DNA of 64,000 nt from Chitinivibrionales bacterium (GCA_035516255.1 DATJAL010000016.1:80629-144628); one strand, 5' to 3'. Positions 3,690 through 56,707 are shown, numbered from the stretch's first letter. Notes: generated from the letters alone by a model not told the origin. Translations and numbers: made by a program.

Positions 3690-4075
3690 CATGGCGCCTG
3701 CCGGTCACGGCACCGGTTCTACCGCTTCGGGTACTTCCAAGGGTCCGTCCCTCCGGTCTCGCCTTCGGCTCGGGCTGCCACGGCGCGAGGCCGCTTCGCG
3801 GCGGCGTCCGGGCAGCGCCGCGCTCCAGCGACGGCCTGCGGTCGCCCCTGGCGCGCGGGCATAATTCCTTCTGCCGCGACTCTTTCCCCCTTATCAAGGG
3901 GGAGGCCGCCGAAGGCGGAGGAGGATGCACCGCAACCAAGGCGTTACGGAAACGCGACGTCCGCAAGGCGGATGCGTTGCGCTTCGCGCGCGTTTCTGTT
4001 TGAAGGGGTGTGGGTGCAGATCGCCGCGCCACCCCAGGGGAAACCACGAAGTGGTTGCCCCACCAGACATTTTTA
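3690..4075. repeat. Composite GC-rich intergenic repeat (family B modules m2-m4 plus a partial module E)
   Basis: Long stretches match 54117-54510, e.g. CCGTCC(C/T)TCC(G/A)GTCTCGCCTTCGGC(T/C)CGGGCTGCCACGGCGCGA, GGCGTCCGGGCAGC, and GGGGTGTGGGTGCAGATCGCCGC. Shorter matches occur at 40575, 44770 and 56555. Confidence 0.75.
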
Positions 4076-36384: not shown

Positions 36385-36432
36385 CCTCTTCACTCCCCTT
36401 CTCCGATTCGGAGAAGGGGTTGGGAGATGAGG
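36385..36432. repeat. Hairpin repeat, family A (CCTTCTCCGATTCGGAGAAGG core with outer arms)
   Basis: CCTCTTCACTCCCCTTCTCC-GATTCG-GAGAAGGGGTTGGGAGATGAGG. Same family as 45909, 50820 and 56666 and as the flanks of the DUF559 gene. Confidence 0.7.
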
Positions 36433-40542: not shown

Positions 40543-40574
40543 AACATTTCCATTTTTTTTATCAAAAGAAATAG

Positions 40575-40678
40575 AGCGCCCCGCAGCTTCGCTGCGGCGG
40601 CCGTCCTTCCGGTCTCGCCTTCGGCTCGGGCCGCCACGGTGCGATGGCGCCGACGCGCGAAAGGGGGAACGCCCACAC
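40575..40678. repeat. GC-rich intergenic repeat, family B (m2 module plus GGGGGAACGCCCA end)
   Basis: CGGCCGTCCTTCCGGTCTCGCCTTCGGCTCGGGCCGCCACGGTGCGATGGCGC ... GGGGGAACGCCCAC. Matches 3745-3790 and 54143-54192. Confidence 0.7.
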
Positions 40679-48275: not shown

Positions 48276-50702
48276 TTAGTTTGTCGCTTTTTCTTTTCTT
48301 TCGCTCCGCCAACCCCAGACGCCCAGCGCAAGCGTCAGCAGCAAGGAAATCAGGGACAGTACCAGGCCTTTTTTGAAAACATCTTCCGAGAAATAACAAA
48401 CCACTTTGTGGCTCCCCTTTTCAACGGGTATCGCCCGCAATGCGTAATCCGCCCTGAGGACCGGCGCGGGCTTTCCGTCAACCGTTGCTTTCCACGACGG
48501 ATAATCTATTTCGCTTAAAACCAGCAGCCCGTTTTTCGCGCTTGTCACTTCCAAGTCGATTTTATTAAGGGAATAATCCGTGATATCGCATTTCCACGCG
48601 GTGTCGGCGCCCAGCGTGTCCATGGCAAGCGCCGGTTTTTCTTCGAGCACTACGGCCTTCTTATAATCGAAGGATGAGTCATACAGAAGGGGCAGTATCT
48701 TGCTTTCGTCCTGCTCGACCGCATACCCGTACACCATCCTTGCGCGCGGGAAGTACGTCGGGTTGAGCGCGAGGCTCATGGACCGGCGCTGCTCGTCCAC
48801 CGCGATCTTGAACTTGACATTGAGGATATCCAGCGTCCGGTCTTTGCGGTTGACGAGCTGGCGCTTGAGCCGCAGCGGGTTGTATCCCTCCATGAGGAAC
48901 AGACGGTGCACGCTCCCCTGGTTCTTGCGGAACGCCATATACTGGCCGCCCAGGTCGTCGGTGCCCGGGTTCGAGCTGCGCGAGTTGATCCTGAAATATT
49001 CCGTTTTTTCCATTTCCTGGAGCTGCCGCACGGTTTCGGTCTTGGCATACATCACGGCCGGGTCAATGGTGCCCGATGCATAGCCCATGCCGAATGCCAT
49101 GAAATCGAGCGCGGCAAGGCACACAAGCAGGACCGCCGCGGTTTTCGCCGACAGTTTCCCGCGCAGGCGCGCCACCAGGATGCCGGCGGAAAAAACGGCG
49201 AGCGCGACAAACACCCACAGGCCCTTGAGCAGGGCGGGGTATATCTGTCTGTCAACATAGTTCGCGATGCCCCGGCCGTCTGACCCGAACCTTCCGTTGG
49301 CAAGGATGAAATCCACGATCCCGCTTTTAAAAGCGCCGGTTGCCGCGATCACTCCCCACGCAAGGCAGATGCCTGCCGTAACCAAGAGCGCGCGTTCGAG
49401 CAGCTTTTTGCGCTTTGCATCTTCCTTTGAAACGCTTTCCTGCAACCAGGTGAGGCCGAGCCCGGCAAGCAGCGACACCGACAGCGAAAAGAAAAAAGCA
49501 AACCGGCCCGGGATGCGGAACGCGTTGAACGCAGGCAGGAATTTAAACGCGATAAAGTAGAGGAAAAATGAATTTCCCATGGCGAGCAGAAAGCTCAGCA
49601 CCGCCATGATGGAAAGAAAAACCGTGAGCGGCGTGCGCACGAAGAACGGCGCGATCGCGGCGAGCGCCAGCGACACCGTTCCCGCGTACATGGCTGTTTC
49701 CCAGTAGTTGTGCGCCCCGCCGTTTACGTCTTTTTCGGAAATTCCCCAGTATGCATTTTTCTGGGGCGTGCCGAAGTAGTTGGGAACCAGCAGCGTGACA
49801 AATCGGTAGGGACGAAACGACCCCTCGCACGATTCGGAAAATGCAAGCTTGGGCCTCACCGAATTTTTCGCGAGCTCCTCCGTGGGCAGAAACTGCACCG
49901 ATCCCATGCCGATGCCGAGCGCCACGAGCCCGGCAAACAGCACGGCGCGCTTTACTTCCGCGAGCGGTTTTGTTTTCTCCCTGATGCGCACCACGAGGCC
50001 GTATAGGTAGTAGGCGGCGAGCCAGTAATACATGTACACCATAAGCTGCGGATATCCACACAGAAACACGACGGTGAGCACGAGCGCGGTGAGCGCCGCG
50101 TACCGCAGGCTCGTGCGGTCGATGGTCCGCTTGAACAGGAGAATTACCAGCGGGAACCACGCCGCGGCATGGACTAGGTTTTCGTGAAAAATGTGGGTGG
50201 TGAAAAATCCGCACAGCATGAAGGTAACGCCCGCGAGAAGACCGCCGCTTTTGCTCGCGCCGTACTCCCGGGCCAGCAGGTACATGAAGCAGCCTGCCAT
50301 GGCGATGTGAAAAACAATCTGGTATTCCACGAGAATCGGGCTGAGCCAGTCTTTTGTCGCAAAGGGCGTGAGCACGAGGTTGAGCGGATACAGCACCGCG
50401 GCCTGCACGTCGGCAAAAAACGGCATGCCCGAAAACACGTACGGGTTCCAGAACGGCATCACACCCTGCTTGAGCCACACGGCCGCGAAGAGCCGGTATA
50501 CGAAGTTCTGCTCTAGAAAATCGTTCCACAGGAAGCCTTTACAGACCAGAATGGGCCAGTAATACACGGCGGTGAGGAGGATCAGGATGCCGAGGGGAAT
50601 GAATGGCTTCCAGGAAAACAAGGATTTTTGTTTTAAGGATGATTCTTTTTGGGAGTCACGCGTTTTGGGTTTGACGATTTTAATCTTTTTCGATGTATCC
50701 AT
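48276..50702 (-). CDS. YfhO-family polytopic membrane protein (putative glycosyltransferase)
   Basis: 808 aa with more than 12 TM helices in the N-terminal two-thirds and a large C-terminal extracytoplasmic domain with a final TM. Size and layout are typical of YfhO. Confidence 0.7.
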   Translation of the reverse strand: MDTSKKIKIVKPKTRDSQKESSLKQKSLFSWKPFIPLGILILLTAVYYWPILVCKGFLWNDFLEQNFVYRLFAAVWLKQGVMPFWNPYVFSGMPFFADVQAAVLYPLNLVLTPFATKDWLSPILVEYQIVFHIAMAGCFMYLLAREYGASKSGGLLAGVTFMLCGFFTTHIFHENLVHAAAWFPLVILLFKRTIDRTSLRYAALTALVLTVVFLCGYPQLMVYMYYWLAAYYLYGLVVRIREKTKPLAEVKRAVLFAGLVALGIGMGSVQFLPTEELAKNSVRPKLAFSESCEGSFRPYRFVTLLVPNYFGTPQKNAYWGISEKDVNGGAHNYWETAMYAGTVSLALAAIAPFFVRTPLTVFLSIMAVLSFLLAMGNSFFLYFIAFKFLPAFNAFRIPGRFAFFFSLSVSLLAGLGLTWLQESVSKEDAKRKKLLERALLVTAGICLAWGVIAATGAFKSGIVDFILANGRFGSDGRGIANYVDRQIYPALLKGLWVFVALAVFSAGILVARLRGKLSAKTAAVLLVCLAALDFMAFGMGYASGTIDPAVMYAKTETVRQLQEMEKTEYFRINSRSSNPGTDDLGGQYMAFRKNQGSVHRLFLMEGYNPLRLKRQLVNRKDRTLDILNVKFKIAVDEQRRSMSLALNPTYFPRARMVYGYAVEQDESKILPLLYDSSFDYKKAVVLEEKPALAMDTLGADTAWKCDITDYSLNKIDLEVTSAKNGLLVLSEIDYPSWKATVDGKPAPVLRADYALRAIPVEKGSHKVVCYFSEDVFKKGLVLSLISLLLTLALGVWGWRSERKEKATN

Positions 50703-50819
50703 GTGTCATCCCGGAATGATTGTCCTGTTAATTTCTATGATAAAATATAAATAATAACTGGATAATATCTGGAGCGGAGTTTAATAATGAGGAATTATTA
50801 TCCTGCTTGATTTGTCGAT

Positions 50820-50867
50820 GACCTTACCCCGGCCCTCCGGGCCACCCCTCTCCGAATCGGAGAGGGG
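50820..50867. repeat. Hairpin repeat, family A
   Basis: GACCTTACCCCGG...CCACCCCTCTCC-GAATCG-GAGAGGGG. Confidence 0.7.
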
Positions 50868-51127
50868 AAAAATCATTACTATATCCATTCACCCGGGGCG
50901 TTGCCCTGGGTTACAAGTATTTCGCCCCTACGGGGCTTAGAAGAACAGATTTCGGCTGTCAGCCAAGAAAGACCTGATCCTTTATCTTTAACGGTATTTT
51001 TTAGGTAAAGGATTCAGTCTTTTCTTTTCTATGAAATAATGGCGGCGGCGTTGCTTCAACGCCGCCTACAACCGCTGAATCGCCCAACTGCTATATGGAT
51101 TTGTCAATAGAAGGACCGGCGCCAGGG

Positions 51128-51221
51128 AGAGGGTATGGGTGCGGATCGCCGGCGCGCCTGTAGCGTTTTCGGTTTTTCTTAAGGCGCGCCGGAAGCCGCA
51201 CCCTAGGGGGAGACCTCCCCC
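51128..51221. repeat. Module E long hairpin repeat
   Basis: GGGTGCGGATCGCCGGCGCGCC (51137-51158), a T-rich loop, GGCGCGCCGGAAGCCGCACCC (51183-51203), then GGGGGAGACCTCCCCC. Homologous to 54418-54507 with paired differences. Confidence 0.75.
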
Positions 51222-51231
51222 TCCAGATGAT

Positions 51232-51672
51232 TTACTTATTCTTTTTCTTCGAAAACACCCAGTAATGCCCCAGCACGAAATTGACAACCGCGCCGCAGGC
51301 GATGCCGATGAGGTTGGAGACGTGCTTGTCGGAAACCCGCACCAGCGGAAGCGAATAGTGGACGTGCAGCACGCCGGTGAACAGCACGAGCAGGCCCCAG
51401 TTGACCACCATGGCGGTAAGGCCCGAGGAGAGGTGGAACTTGAACATCATGTACAGAAACGATCGCTTGCTCCCGGTTTTGCGGTCCTTCCAGGTCCAGA
51501 AGTAATTCCAGAGGAAATTGTTGATCACCGCGCATTCGATGGCGCAGATGCTCGCGATGCGGTAATCGATGCGGGCGTAATCGGCGAACAAGAAAAAGAG
51601 CCCGGCGTTGACCACCACGCCGCTGCCGCCCACGATGCCGAATTTTACAAAGCGGAAAAGTTGAGAGGTCAT
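51232..51672 (-). CDS. GtrA-family membrane protein
   Basis: The ATG at 51672 is preferred. FRFVKFGIVGGSGVVVNAGLFFL plus four TM helices is typical of GtrA/GtcA. Confidence 0.8.
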   Translation of the reverse strand: MTSQLFRFVKFGIVGGSGVVVNAGLFFLFADYARIDYRIASICAIECAVINNFLWNYFWTWKDRKTGSKRSFLYMMFKFHLSSGLTAMVVNWGLLVLFTGVLHVHYSLPLVRVSDKHVSNLIGIACGAVVNFVLGHYWVFSKKKNK

Positions 51673-51686
51673 GGCGCGAAGCCGCC

Positions 51687-52448
51687 CTACGGGCATGTTC
51701 CCTGGGTGGTCCGCCAGTCAAGCTCCGCATGAATGTCGAGCCATGCCGCAAAGGTGGTCGGAAGCGTGTTAGGACAGATTTGATTGTTATCAATATATAA
51801 TGCAAGCTGGCTTAGTGAAGAGACCGACTGCGGAAGCGTGGTCAGGGAATTATTGTTGACGGAAAGCCGCTGAAGGTTGGTGAGGTTTGAAACCGTCGCC
51901 GGAATATCGGTAAGACTGTTGTAATCGAGACCAAGATCGGTAAGCGAGGTCATGTTCCAAAGCTCTGCCGGGAGTGAAGAAACGGCGTTGTGTGACAGGA
52001 TGAGCGCGCCAAGTGAATGCAATTTGCTGATTCCCGCTGGCAACGTGGTGAGCTGGTTGCTGGAAAGCTGTATCCTAACCAGCGAGGTGCAATTCCAAAT
52101 CTGGGACGGAAGCGCGGTGAGGCTGTTGGTGTCGAGTCGAATGGTTTCGAGCGCGGTGAGCTCGCCGATGCGCGAAGGAATGGTGGTGATCCCCTTGTTT
52201 TGGAGCGTCAGCTCCTTGATGCGGTGAATGTTCCCGTTCACGAGCGTCATGACCAGGATCGTGGGGCTGCCGGCGGAGATCGTTGTAAGGCCGTTGGCGT
52301 CGAGGATTGCCCTCAGGGCAAGCGTGTCGGAATAATCGAAGACGGTTCCCGGTTGGTTCCCTCCGGGATTGGTCCCCTTGTTTTTCCCGCAGGAAAGCGC
52401 AAGCAGCAGGACGCATGCGCACAATCCGAACAGTTTCATCGTCTTCAT
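51687..52448 (-). CDS. Leucine-rich-repeat lipoprotein
   Basis: The ATG at 52448 gives a lipobox (LLLALSCG). There are about 8 tandem 23-aa LRRs (LxxLxLxxNxLtxLPxxi). Confidence 0.75.
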   Translation of the reverse strand: MKTMKLFGLCACVLLLALSCGKNKGTNPGGNQPGTVFDYSDTLALRAILDANGLTTISAGSPTILVMTLVNGNIHRIKELTLQNKGITTIPSRIGELTALETIRLDTNSLTALPSQIWNCTSLVRIQLSSNQLTTLPAGISKLHSLGALILSHNAVSSLPAELWNMTSLTDLGLDYNSLTDIPATVSNLTNLQRLSVNNNSLTTLPQSVSSLSQLALYIDNNQICPNTLPTTFAAWLDIHAELDWRTTQGTCP

Positions 52449-54100: not shown

Positions 54101-54116
54101 TTATTTATTAAAAAGT

Positions 54117-54510
54117 TGGGCGTTCCCCCGCTTCGCGGGGTCGGCCGTCCTTCCAGTCTCGCCTTCGGCCCGGGCTGCCACGGCGCGATGGCGCTGATGC
54201 GCCGGCGTCCGGGCAGCACCGCTCTCCAGAGCGGCCTCCAGTCCTGCCTAACGCGCGGGAATAAGTTCACTGCCGCATTTGTAAATCCCATCATGTCTAT
54301 CAGTGGGCTCTATTATTTATCTTCTTCCGCCGTGTAAAGCCCGCGCTGCCGCCGTCGCACCGCCAGCCACTAAATCTTTCCGCGAATCATGGGAGTATCG
54401 GCGCCAAAGAGGGGGTGTGGGTGCAGATCGCCGCCGCCTCCGGCATCTGCTTTTCTTTTTTGTGAAGGAGGCGGCGGAAGCTGCACCCCAGGGGGAGACT
54501 TCCCCCGCAT
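54117..54510. repeat. Composite GC-rich intergenic repeat (family B modules m1-m4 plus module E)
   Basis: This is the most complete copy. m1 is TTGGGCGTTCCCCCGCTTCGCGGGG, and m2, m3 and m4 follow. Module E follows: GGGTGCAGATCGCCGCCGCCTCC, a T-rich loop, GGAGGCGGCGGAAGCTGCACCC, then GGGGGAGACTTCCCCC. Confidence 0.8.
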
Positions 54511-54524
54511 TAATATTTTAGCGA

Positions 54525-56450
54525 TTATTGAACCTCAAGCTCCGCCTGCGCATCCACCACATCCCTATTGACAAGCACAAGCGATTCATGCATCCTGTCC
54601 GCGATGTAGGGATCGGGGATGGTGTCCCGCAGAGTGCGCAGGAGCTGCACGCTCATGCGCAGCACGCGCACGAGGTCGCCCTCGGGAACGCCGAACGACT
54701 CGAGCTGTGCGAGCGTGCAGCCGTTTGCCCAGGCGAACACCGGTGCGGCGAGCGCGAAATCGAGCTCGCGCACGGGCGCGTCGATGTTGTGGCGGAGCTC
54801 CTTGATGCGGAGTTTATGGATCACGCCTTCGGCTGCGAACCGCATCTTGACATCCGAGACAGGCCTGGCGTTGCGGCGCCGGCTCTCTTCGGTGATGAGC
54901 GCCGCGACCACCACGGGAAGCTGCGTGGCGGTGCATTCGTCGAAGCTGCGGGAATAATACAGCTCGCTGGCCTGGATCTCGTAGCCGTTCACGGCCATGG
55001 CGAGCCGCCCCTTGTCCGTGAGGTGGCGTCCGTCAAGGAACCCGGCCGACTGGAGGAACGCGATGCGGTTCTTTATCTGCTCCTCCTCCTGGCGGTAGGA
55101 GTGCGTGTAGGCGAAACGCCCTTTGCGGTAGTTGCGTAGGCTCCTCTGGAAAATCTCGAACGCGGCGTCGCCGTACTGGCTGTACAAGGCAAGAATCGTT
55201 GAGTATGACGCGAAGAACCTGCTCGAGATCACCTCGTTACGGCCGTGCCACAGCCGCTCCACCTGCGTGGGGTCGGTGGCCTCGGGGATGATCTGCGAAT
55301 ACACATAGCCCACGTCGTCCATGCCGCGGCGGCCGGCGCGGCCCGCCATCTGGTTGTACTGCCTTGTCATGAGGTAATTGAAGTCGACGCCGTCGAACTT
55401 TTCGAGCGTGTCGAAGATCACGGTACTGGCCGGCATGTTCACGCCGAGCGCGAACGTCTCGGTGCAGAACAGGAGCTTGATGAGTCCGGCGGAGAACAGC
55501 CGCTCCACGATCTCCTTTGCGGCCGGCAGGATGCCCGCGTGGTGGTAGGCAACTCCGGCCGCCCATAATTGCCGCATGTAAAGCAACCGGTCGTAGGAGG
55601 TGAGGCGGTACTGGGCCGCGAGGTCTTCCACCATGGCGGCGGAACGCGCCTGCTCGTCGGCAGAGAGCAGCTTGAGCCACGCGTGCATGTGCGCGTTGCG
55701 CTCGCACGCGTTGCGGTTGAAGCAGAAGTAGAGGATGGGATAATGCCCTGTGTCAAGCACATGCCGCACCACGCTGCGCGCCGACGGCTTCTTGCGCAGG
55801 AACGCCCGTCGCTGGTCGGGGTTCCTGCGGTAGAGCCCGGCCACCTGCTTGACGCTCATGATCTTGAATTTCGGGCTATACAAAAAATGTTTGAGCGGCA
55901 CGGGCCGGTGCGTCTCCTCGATCACGGTGACGTGCGAGCCGCGCACCGCCTCCATCCACTGCGCGAGCTCGTGGAGGTTGGGCACCGTGGCCGACAGGCA
56001 CATGAAGCGGATGTCGCGCGGCGCGAGGATGATGCTCTCCTCCCACACGGTGCCGCGTTCCGGATCGTCAAGGTAGTGGATCTCGTCGAACACGGTGTAG
56101 TACACGTCGGAAAGCCGCGGCGATCCTTCGAGGATGAGGTTGCGGAAAATCTCGGTGGTCATGATGAGGAGCCGCGCCTCGGGGTTCATGGTAACGTCCC
56201 CGGTGTGGATGCCCACCACCTCGTCGCCGAAGCGCTTCCTAAAGTCGCGGTACTTCTGGTTCGAGAGCGCCTTGATGGGCGCGGTGTAGATCACGCGCTT
56301 GCCGAGCTTCATGGAGGCCTCCACCGCGTACTCCGCGATGAGGGTCTTGCCGCAGCCCGTGGGCGCGGCCACGATGAGCGACTTTCCTTCGTCAATTGCC
56401 TGTACCGCTTTTTCCTGGAACGAGTCGAGGGCGAAACCGAGGTAGTTCAC
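54525..56450 (-). CDS. Ski2-like DEAD/DEAH-box RNA helicase (HelY/Mtr4-like)
   Basis: Motif I APTGCGKT, motif II DEIH, SAT, the helicase C block (..TETFALGVNMPA..., QMAGRAGRRG) and a DSHCT-like C-terminus (EGDLVRVLRMSVQLLRTL). Confidence 0.85.
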   Translation of the reverse strand: MNYLGFALDSFQEKAVQAIDEGKSLIVAAPTGCGKTLIAEYAVEASMKLGKRVIYTAPIKALSNQKYRDFRKRFGDEVVGIHTGDVTMNPEARLLIMTTEIFRNLILEGSPRLSDVYYTVFDEIHYLDDPERGTVWEESIILAPRDIRFMCLSATVPNLHELAQWMEAVRGSHVTVIEETHRPVPLKHFLYSPKFKIMSVKQVAGLYRRNPDQRRAFLRKKPSARSVVRHVLDTGHYPILYFCFNRNACERNAHMHAWLKLLSADEQARSAAMVEDLAAQYRLTSYDRLLYMRQLWAAGVAYHHAGILPAAKEIVERLFSAGLIKLLFCTETFALGVNMPASTVIFDTLEKFDGVDFNYLMTRQYNQMAGRAGRRGMDDVGYVYSQIIPEATDPTQVERLWHGRNEVISSRFFASYSTILALYSQYGDAAFEIFQRSLRNYRKGRFAYTHSYRQEEEQIKNRIAFLQSAGFLDGRHLTDKGRLAMAVNGYEIQASELYYSRSFDECTATQLPVVVAALITEESRRRNARPVSDVKMRFAAEGVIHKLRIKELRHNIDAPVRELDFALAAPVFAWANGCTLAQLESFGVPEGDLVRVLRMSVQLLRTLRDTIPDPYIADRMHESLVLVNRDVVDAQAELEVQ

Positions 56451-56554: not shown

Positions 56555-56707
56555 GGAGTTTCCCCGCTTCGCGGGGCCGGGCAGCACCGCGCCCCGGCGC
56601 GGCCTCCAGTCGCGCCTAACGCGCGATATAATTTTCTTTCCGCAAGTTAAACGTTCAGGTCTTTTCCCCTCTCCGATTCGGAGAGGGGCCGGGGGTGAGG
56701 TCTGAAC
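56555..56707. repeat. Family B (m1, m3, m4) followed by a family A hairpin
   Basis: CCCCGCTTCGCGGGG, then CGGGCAGCACCGCGCCCCGGCGCGGCCTCCAG, then TCGCGCCTAACGCGCG, then CCCCTCTCCGATTCGGAGAGGGGCCGGGGGTGAGG (56666-56700). Confidence 0.75.

Follow-up and report, generated by a model that had tools for sequence, protein, structure and literature searches.

Module E, the long hairpin of which one copy is displayed above, is a peripheral arm and one optional module of a longer composite unit. We read this unit as a mobile, probably transcribed, small structured RNA to which E contributes a structural arm, and we give this reading a probability of about 0.55. The window, by which we mean the whole 64,000-nt stretch of the Chitinivibrionales genome that was analyzed, carries two full copies of E (copies 1 and 2) and one truncated copy (copy 3).

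The genome contains hundreds of folded, protein-less intergenic units (∼75 with E, ∼30 with a second hairpin termed E2, and 185–254 copies of a partner family in 4.3 Mb), none of which is found in Rfam. With module E, the case that such repeats are more than decaying junk is unusually clear: copies keep 98% of their pairs at only ∼80% identity, and they do so on one strand. If transcribed, the units would make up a new type of abundant RNA in bacteria, built modularly from head, arm, and tail and finished by a tRNA-like end, comparable to the TwoAYGGAY loci. If they act as DNA, they would point to an unrecognized mobilization system. In either case, they are well suited to studying how structured repeats of high copy number originate, swap parts, and persist.

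Copies of module E in the window

The initial annotation had described two long hairpins, each followed by a small second hairpin, and a shortened third copy. All were found within one base of the positions it gave; the hairpin of copy 2 starts at 54419, so that 54418 was one base early. The third copy (4005–4067) is internally deleted, as described, and carries a longer second hairpin. The differences between the arms of copies 1 and 2 (CAG/CTG to CGG/CCG and GCCGCC.. to GGCGCG..) are indeed matched on both sides, and the 4 × 3 internal loop ATCG/AAG is identical in the two copies. The T-rich loop that had been noted in both is not a conserved feature, because the apex varies from 3 to ∼100 nt across the family and has no conserved sequence. 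Similarly, copies differ by more than the matched changes that had been described, as the family also contains 76 G·U pairs and ∼47 non-pairs in ∼1,280 stem cells.

Both full copies are much more stable than shuffled sequence, with a folding energy of −61.1 kcal/mol for copy 1 (z = −2.8) and −62.4 kcal/mol for copy 2 (z = −4.6). A 72-amino acid open reading frame that runs across copy 2 (54303..54521, plus strand) was rejected as coding because the lengths of the inner hairpins (17, 40–50, and 65–89 nt) ignore multiples of three and break the frame across copies. The spacer that contains copy 1 (50702–51232, 530 nt) consists of several repeat modules piled up, and only ∼60–100 nt are present there in two sister genomes. 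Hairpins of the form CCCCTCTCCGAWTCGGAGAGGGG constitute another small repeat family in the same spacers (50840–50870 and 56666–56688) and occur also at 36396–36418.

Table 1. Positions of E units, their parts, and adjoining features, counted from the first nucleotide of the window
Feature	Position	Strand	Details
Copy 1, 5′ module	51000..51129	+	Degenerate type A (..atcgcccaac..ggaccggcgccagggag), no intact TATAAT box
Copy 1, lead-in	51130..51137	+	AGGGTATG; single-stranded, conserved (consensus GGGGTGYG); last G is first base of basal helix
Copy 1, module E hairpin	51137..51203	+	100.5 bits (model R1)
Copy 1, basal helix Pa	51137–51144 with 51196–51203	+	
Copy 1, internal loop	51145–51148 and 51193–51195	+	ATCG versus AAG
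Copy 1, upper helix Pb	51149–51158 with 51183–51192	+	
Copy 1, apex	51159–51182	+	
Copy 1, 5′ arm	51137–51158	+	GGGTGCGG-ATCG-CCGGCGCGCC
Copy 1, 3′ arm	51183–51203	+	GGCGCGCCGG-AAG-CCGCACCC
Copy 1, Pc and tail	51206..51227	+	TA after E, then short hairpin Pc GGGGGAGACCTCCCCC (51206–51221), then TCCAGA (consensus NCCARA)
Gene convergent to copy 1	51232..51696	−	Ends 5 nt beyond tail
Copy 2, 5′ module	54314..54411	+	Type A; −10-like hexamer TATTAT within ctattatttatc, CU-rich start TCTTCTTCCGCCGTGTAAAG, to ..GGCGCCAAAGAG
Copy 2, lead-in and module E hairpin	54412..54488	+	Lead-in GGGGTGTG (54412–54419); 110.8 bits (model R1)
Copy 2, basal helix Pa	54419–54426 with 54481–54488	+	
Copy 2, internal loop	54427–54430 and 54478–54480	+	ATCG versus AAG
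Copy 2, upper helix Pb	54431–54441 with 54467–54477	+	
Copy 2, apex	54442–54466	+	
Copy 2, 5′ arm	54419–54441	+	GGGTGCAG-ATCG-CCGCCGCCTCC
Copy 2, 3′ arm	54467–54488	+	GGAGGCGGCGG-AAG-CTGCACCC
Copy 2, Pc and tail	54491..54512	+	CA after E, then Pc GGGGGAGACTTCCCCC (54491–54506), then GCATTA
Gene convergent to copy 2	54525..56450	−	Ends 13 nt beyond tail
Partner-family copy	54110..54262	−	More abundant, different structured repeat; points away from copy 2, together one divergent cassette
Copy 3, 5′ module	3925..4004	+	Type C (..gcgttacggaaacgcg..cgcgtttctgtttgaa) with its own covarying helix
Copy 3, truncated module E	4005..4036	+	GGGGTGTG, GGTGCAG, ATCG, and CCGCGC retained; apex and most of 3′ arm gone; CACCCCA left
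Copy 3, Pc and tail	4037..4067	+	Long-form Pc GGGGAAACCACGAAGTGGTTGCCCC, then ACCAGA

The E family and its consensus

A motif search of the window genome assembly (4.28 Mb, 61 contigs, 55% G+C) yielded 76 copies of E. Both arms could be parsed in 69 copies, and the upper helix reaches at least 7 bp in 64; 35 copies lie on the minus and 29 on the plus strand. The unit is ∼200 nt long and consists of a 5′ module, the lead-in GGGGUGYG, E, CCA, a short G5/C5 hairpin (Pc), and the tail NCCA(R)A.

Module E itself is a hairpin of 60–140 nt. A basal helix (Pa, 8 bp in the consensus) is followed by an asymmetric internal loop, in which AUCR on the 5′ strand faces AAG on the 3′ strand (63/69 copies have AAG), and then by an upper helix (Pb) of 7–16 bp or more. 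Pc occurs as GGGGGAGACYUCCCCC or in longer forms such as GGGGAAACCACGAAGUGGUKNCCCC. The 3′ edge after Pc reads D-C(83%)-C(67%)-A(76%)-R-A and becomes T-rich from ∼+10 (to +20).

Scans against Rfam 15 at gathering and at permissive thresholds matched E to no family. The gathering-level matches in the window are four tRNAs, none of them at E, and the best E-values at the E locus belong to chance matches to miRNA-precursor hairpins (20–22 bits against a 90-bit threshold). A literature search returned nothing on these elements.

Selection on the fold and on one strand

In 36 aligned copies, 98.1% of the stem cells hold standard pairs, compared with 82.8% in shuffles, and both sides change in 16 of 25 pairs; none of 500 shuffles reaches any of these measures. 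Sliding the partner by 1–3 columns lowers pairing to 48–57%. The additional genomic copies, which the initial annotation had suggested scoring for covariation, retain their pairing.

Among the basal helices, complete swaps are seen (GGUGCAG, GGUGCGG, and CCCCCGG). Four of its positions switch jointly between C-G,C-G,C-G,C-G and G-C,G-C,U-A,G-C, a fifth alternates between G-C and A-U, and another genus has the version CCUGAAG/CUUCAGG. The upper helix is more varied still, with 40 distinct 5′ arms among 64 copies. A G·U pair on one strand corresponds to an A·C pair on the other. Across both helices, there are 76 G·U against 9 A·C pairs, and this 8-fold excess indicates that single-strand folding occurs on the written strand, which for each of the three copies is the plus strand of the window.

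The E copies are old. The nearest paralog of a copy has a median identity of 81% and a maximum of 92.8%. In 51 paralog pairs of equal length, the apex diverges at 45% and the stems at 10.5% of sites, i.e. loops change about four times faster. Paralog comparisons reveal 76 changed pairs, of which 68 remain paired, 29 through changes on both sides and 39 through a one-sided change that leaves a wobble; the other 8 are broken. The fold of E is under purifying selection and is not merely inherited from one folded ancestor. Of the two explanations that the initial annotation had offered, function as a structure gains support from pairing kept over ∼40 arm sequences, from the slower stems, and from the changed pairs that still pair; the other, templating of one arm by the other, is taken up with the alternatives below.

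Two further candidates were discarded. Pairing of the 5′ leader CUUCC-GCCG with the 3′ arm of E involves similar sequences without covariation, and GGA motifs of the CsrA type lie inside the stem and outside the loops.

Module E is an exchangeable part of a composite unit

The 5′ modules that precede GGGGUGYG belong to at least four unrelated classes (A, B, C, and D), all of which join E at one point. Type A is the commonest. Among 36 aligned type-A units, conservation starts abruptly at TATAAT, with none upstream, and T1, A2, A4, and T6 are each present in 32/36. The hexamer is followed by ATTT, by a CU-rich start TCTTCTTCC(R)C CGTGTAAA, and by ∼90 nt that partly covary and end in GGCGCCAAAGAG. 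Types B, C, and D differ from it and consist of several GC-rich helices each, with compensatory changes of their own. Each major 5′ class carries both Pa versions and, therefore, the modules reassort.

The slot of E can be filled by other hairpins. In the E2 units, a second irregular hairpin (GGGGG-yAGCGrAGGACCGG-nCGyGC..apex..GCrCG-nCCGGGCCGsAGCGA-GGGGG) takes exactly this place, with the 5′ modules and the Pc-NCCA tail unchanged, and one of its pairs covaries (C-G in 7 copies, U-A in 5). Examples are found at C17:29380(−), C13:100574(+), and C61:4695(+), and none within the two loci of the window. A third middle hairpin, E3, occurs at least twice (genome C10:7566(+) and sister genome locus L061); its inner arms GCAATGTmGAGA..TCTCkACATGy stand on a shortened basal helix between GGGGTGTG and CCA-GGGGG. 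The combinations A+E (47), A+E2 (22), B+E (6), B+E2 (8), and C+E (14) were counted.

Five units possess no middle hairpin, and the 5′ module runs directly into the GGGGG of Pc, e.g. at C10:40170(−), C29:83042(−), and C27:121206(+). E- and E2-units have GGGGG on both sides of the insert, E-less units a single GGGGG. The paired GGGGG resembles a 5-nt duplication or a deletion scar and could stem from either insertion or deletion. E is thus both exchangeable and dispensable. As it is substituted or absent in some units, the constant part is the junction, composed of GGGGUGYG, the foot of the helix, CCA, Pc, and NCCA.

Two side observations concern the sequence around individual units. In the copy at C29:163(−), an insertion after GGATCACCGG starts an IS3-like orfA (MSTSRKKYDDAFKREAVQLL..) at the end of the contig. 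In the sister genome G005, arrays of the 5–6-mer TCAAC(T) lie directly upstream of a unit with a type-B module at loci L038, L045, L071, and L074.

Genomic context and the partner repeat family

The orientation of E units is random with respect to GC skew (20/47) and to the local majority gene strand (19/41) but not with respect to adjacent genes, so that the strand bias raised in the initial annotation exists in one of the two respects it had named, replication and adjacent genes. The 3′ end of the unit faces the end of a convergent gene in 45/73 cases, usually at a distance of 1–40 nt, and both full window copies are arranged in this way. A co-oriented gene follows 28 of the 73 units at 70–150 nt, and 10 of the 73 are set between divergent genes. 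In the genome neighborhoods of the E copies, no gene recurs and no autonomous parent element was found; the window genome likewise has no reverse transcriptase.

The partner family, which has 185–254 signature matches genome-wide and further copies in the window at 3745–3839 and 40566–40658, diverges from the E unit within 350 nt in 17/76 units (about one quarter). Just upstream of its 5′ start GCGCGTTAGGCAGG lies a −35/−10-like TTTACA-N16-TATTMC, and its 3′ end ..GGGGGAACGCCCAAC is followed by TTTTT.

Distribution and turnover

Taxon counts were obtained with a covariance model of E plus Pc. The window genome and three congeners contain 43 to at least 48 E matches each, among the matches listed, a fifth congener contains 15, and a sixth 0. 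The search of related genomes that the initial annotation had proposed for dating the family thus places E in 13 of the 33 genera of the order, with 0 to at least 48 copies per genome within the genus. Elsewhere in the phylum, only single weak matches of at most 48 bits were found. The E family has the character of a dispersed repeat confined to one lineage of uncultured bacteria from peat and wetlands.

In a synteny test, 38 E-bearing loci were taken from G005, and both flanks lie close together on one contig of the window genome at 17 of them. A good E is present in the window genome at 3/17. The two species align at these three shared loci in the Pc-tail end and the neighboring gene but have different 5′ modules and E subtypes there. 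Where a locus is filled in G005 and empty here, an entire cassette of ∼480 nt is missing, which comprises an outward-facing repeat of another family, an AT-rich core, the 5′ module, E, and Pc. The flanking spacers of filled and empty loci are too diverged to reveal a target-site duplication. At the positions of the window's two E loci, sister genomes have a spacer of ∼10–60 nt or unrelated repeats. Contigs of metagenome DNA break at the repeats, and the one joint that skips the cassette was set aside because its anchor is only 23 nt long. Within one bacterial order, units appear, disappear, and are replaced over the time in which species diverge.

Transcription signals and RNA evidence

The type-A unit has TATAAT at its edge, with no −35 box and no standard intrinsic terminator. 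No U-tract adjoins either hairpin on either strand; Pc is followed by DCCARAWWW, and the sequence is T-rich only from ∼+10. A scan with a terminator consensus called none at the ends of copies 1 and 2, its sole call there being inside the apex of copy 1. The −35-like TTGACA that is present in many apical loops was rejected as a promoter, as no −10 box stands at the right spacing.

Contigs from four wetland metatranscriptomes match family members at 85–99% identity; they derive from mixed communities, are unstranded, and do not stop at the CCA tail. When their coverage is compared with that of the flanking gene, the ratio does not exceed the one found by DNA sequencing of comparable samples. 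Because RNA depth does not exceed the DNA copy-number ratio, these contigs may also reflect read-through or DNA carry-over. Transcription of E units is plausible.

Proposed role of module E

In our reading, the molecule under selection would be an RNA. In type-A units, transcription would start from the conserved TATAAT at the 5′ edge and yield an RNA with its 3′ end near the NCCA tail. Module E, as a helix of roughly two turns, would stiffen and shield the 3′ domain, and it would present the conserved AUCR/AAG loop, probably to a protein partner. The core function would be carried by the constant junction, from GGGGUGYG and the foot of the helix through CCA and Pc to NCCA, and the units would spread as DNA cassettes.

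Several points weigh against an RNA. TATAAT might mark the terminus of a DNA element instead, and the wobble asymmetry is not specific to RNA, since G·T is also tolerated in folded single-stranded DNA. The patchy, lineage-specific distribution looks like that of a selfish repeat and argues against an essential cellular RNA.

A bolder version of the RNA reading, which we regard as improbable, takes the E units as protein-less, self-contained mobile genes for small RNAs, each bounded on one side by a minimal promoter and on the opposite side by a tRNA-like helix-NCCA end, with 5′ heads and middle arms that are shuffled among copies. Host enzymes of tRNA-end or RNA processing, or some recombination route that recognizes the constant junction, would define the ends of such genes and perhaps drive their spread. 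The 3′ end of the 16S rRNA (genome C29:∼126849) reads GGUGCGG-CUGG-AUCACCUCCUU, and the 5′ arm of E reads GGUGCGG-AUCRCC(G/U)CC, e.g. at 51138–51152 in the window. GAUCACCUCC itself, opposed by GGAGG on the other arm, is found in a few E copies; GAUCGCCGCC predominates, and in a distant genus the sequence is GACCCC. Era is known to bind a site at the 16S 3′ end. In a sub-variant that the sequence likeness suggests, the 5′ arm GGUGCGG-AUCACC(U/G)CC might copy the 3′ strand of helix 45 together with the anti-Shine-Dalgarno tail and serve as a mimic for a factor such as Era. The similarity of E to 16S rRNA may be a coincidence.

Alternative explanations

The most probable of the alternatives, although we consider it unlikely, is that E is a site in single-stranded DNA, comparable to REP/REPIN sequences, the ends of IS200/IS605 elements, or attC, at which a strand-specific HUH transposase or a recombinase moves or exchanges the modules, and that the fold is selected during transposition. 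The succession of basal helix, unpaired spacer, upper helix, and free apex resembles the layout of attC and REP sites. Strand-specific selection, patchy presence at variable copy number, the replacement of modules at fixed loci, the location of copies at gene 3′ ends, and the GGGGG direct repeat that flanks E relative to E-less units would all agree with such a site.

The genome also encodes one REP-associated tyrosine transposase (RAYT), a protein of 199 amino acids with HUH and YxxxNP motifs that scores 79.6 bits against NF047646. Its gene (C16:∼69,800–70,450; locus L021 1210–1809, minus strand) lies ∼10 kb before the start of the window. However, it is bracketed by different hairpins, inverted copies of GCCCGACCTKMAGGTCGGGC (GCCCGACCTGAAGGTCGGGC), which have no other good copies in the genome. 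In addition, the congeneric genomes G001 and G005 give no match to Y1_Tnp and have at least 43 E copies each. Mobilization by a RAYT or an IS200-type transposase was rejected on these grounds, as the sole RAYT has different flanking hairpins and does not co-occur with E.

Other observations also speak against a DNA site. No gene recurs beside E copies, and the orientation bias relative to GC skew that IS200/IS605-type elements do show is absent. The signature motifs GTTRRRY and GTAG are missing. No pair of copies is >93% identical, so that there is no sign of recent bursts, and selection during transposition alone fails to explain that old copies are still paired.

A second alternative, less probable than the first, is that E and the short hairpin act only in cis on the neighboring genes, as a terminator, an insulator, or a protection of the 3′ end in the manner of REP, ERIC, or Correia elements, and that the upstream modules are passengers. 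The proximity of the 3′ end of the unit to the stop codon of a convergent gene (1–40 nt in 45/73, including both window copies), the high stability of the hairpins on both strands, and the T-rich stretch at +10 to +20 are in line with this idea. Against it stand the missing U-tract beside either hairpin and the G·U bias, which puts selection on the strand opposite to the mRNA of the convergent gene. Moreover, a considerable number of units precede a co-oriented gene (28/73) or lie between divergent genes (10), and action in cis leaves unexplained why GGGGUGYG, AUCR/AAG, and NCCA are conserved and why the 5′ modules covary.

An arm-copying mechanism (snap-back synthesis, hairpin-primed synthesis, or palindrome correction), which would make the matched differences a by-product and for which the mirrored differences of the window copies and the apparent movement of whole inner hairpins as blocks between different basal helices could be cited, is very improbable: the arms are not exact complements, the asymmetric 4 × 3 loop is conserved in 63/69 copies, one-sided changes leave wobble pairs in 39 cases and break pairing in 7, the apex between the arms is 3–100 nt of unrelated sequence, and arms that were templated and then decayed neutrally would give similar numbers of G·U and A·C pairs instead of 76 and 9.

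Relation to known repeat classes

By analogy, the RNA unit that we propose would work most like REP/BIME, BOX, or ERIC-type repeats and the TwoAYGGAY loci, yet it appears to belong to none of them. The REP, BIME, and REPIN sequences of Enterobacteria and Pseudomonas, which are moved by RAYTs, are high-copy intergenic imperfect palindromes like E. They share with it compensatory change in the stem, mosaics of interchangeable modules, enrichment at gene 3′ ends, and copy numbers that vary from relative to relative. REP/REPIN sequences are, however, short palindromes (∼20–40 nt) with a GTAG motif, whereas E spans 60–140 nt, has the lead-in GGGGTGYG, and lacks any motif of the GTAG type. The E unit as a whole (∼200 nt) is five to six times longer than a REP and has covarying 5′ modules, a TATAAT edge, and an NCCA tail. 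With respect to miniature inverted-repeat elements (MITEs), the unit has no terminal inverted repeats, and its closest E copies are 92.8% identical.

The attC sites of integrons, e.g. the repeats of Vibrio cholerae, likewise keep structure over sequence and fold strand-specifically; as in E, an unpaired central spacer separates their basal helix from the upper one, and the terminal structure varies. In contrast to attC, E lacks the RYYYAAC/GTTRRRY core, is dispersed over both strands and not arranged in arrays of co-oriented cassettes, and has neither an adjoining integrase gene nor a recurrent neighbor gene.

The dispersed BOX repeats of Streptococcus pneumoniae (boxA-boxB-boxC) are modular in the same way as the E units: their middle module varies, they form stable hairpins in transcripts, and they encode no protein of their own. 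To our knowledge, an NCCA tail, a TATAAT edge, and covariation of comparable richness are all absent from BOX modules.

TwoAYGGAY RNAs (RF01731) occur in Pseudomonas as tens to hundreds of structured copies, the number of which differs sharply between relatives; they often form divergent doublets ∼250 bp apart, with short repeat arrays upstream and with peripheral hairpins that are variable or replaced (bioRxiv 10.64898/2026.09.22.753630). The E units resemble these loci in being high-copy structured units with divergent doublets, upstream short arrays (compare the TCAAC(T) arrays above), a copy number that varies between relatives, and variable peripheral hairpins. The two show no similarity in sequence or structure: E has no AYGGAY loops, belongs to a different phylum, and has no Rfam match. 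Whereas a TwoAYGGAY doublet joins two copies of the same element, the E unit is paired with an unrelated partner family.
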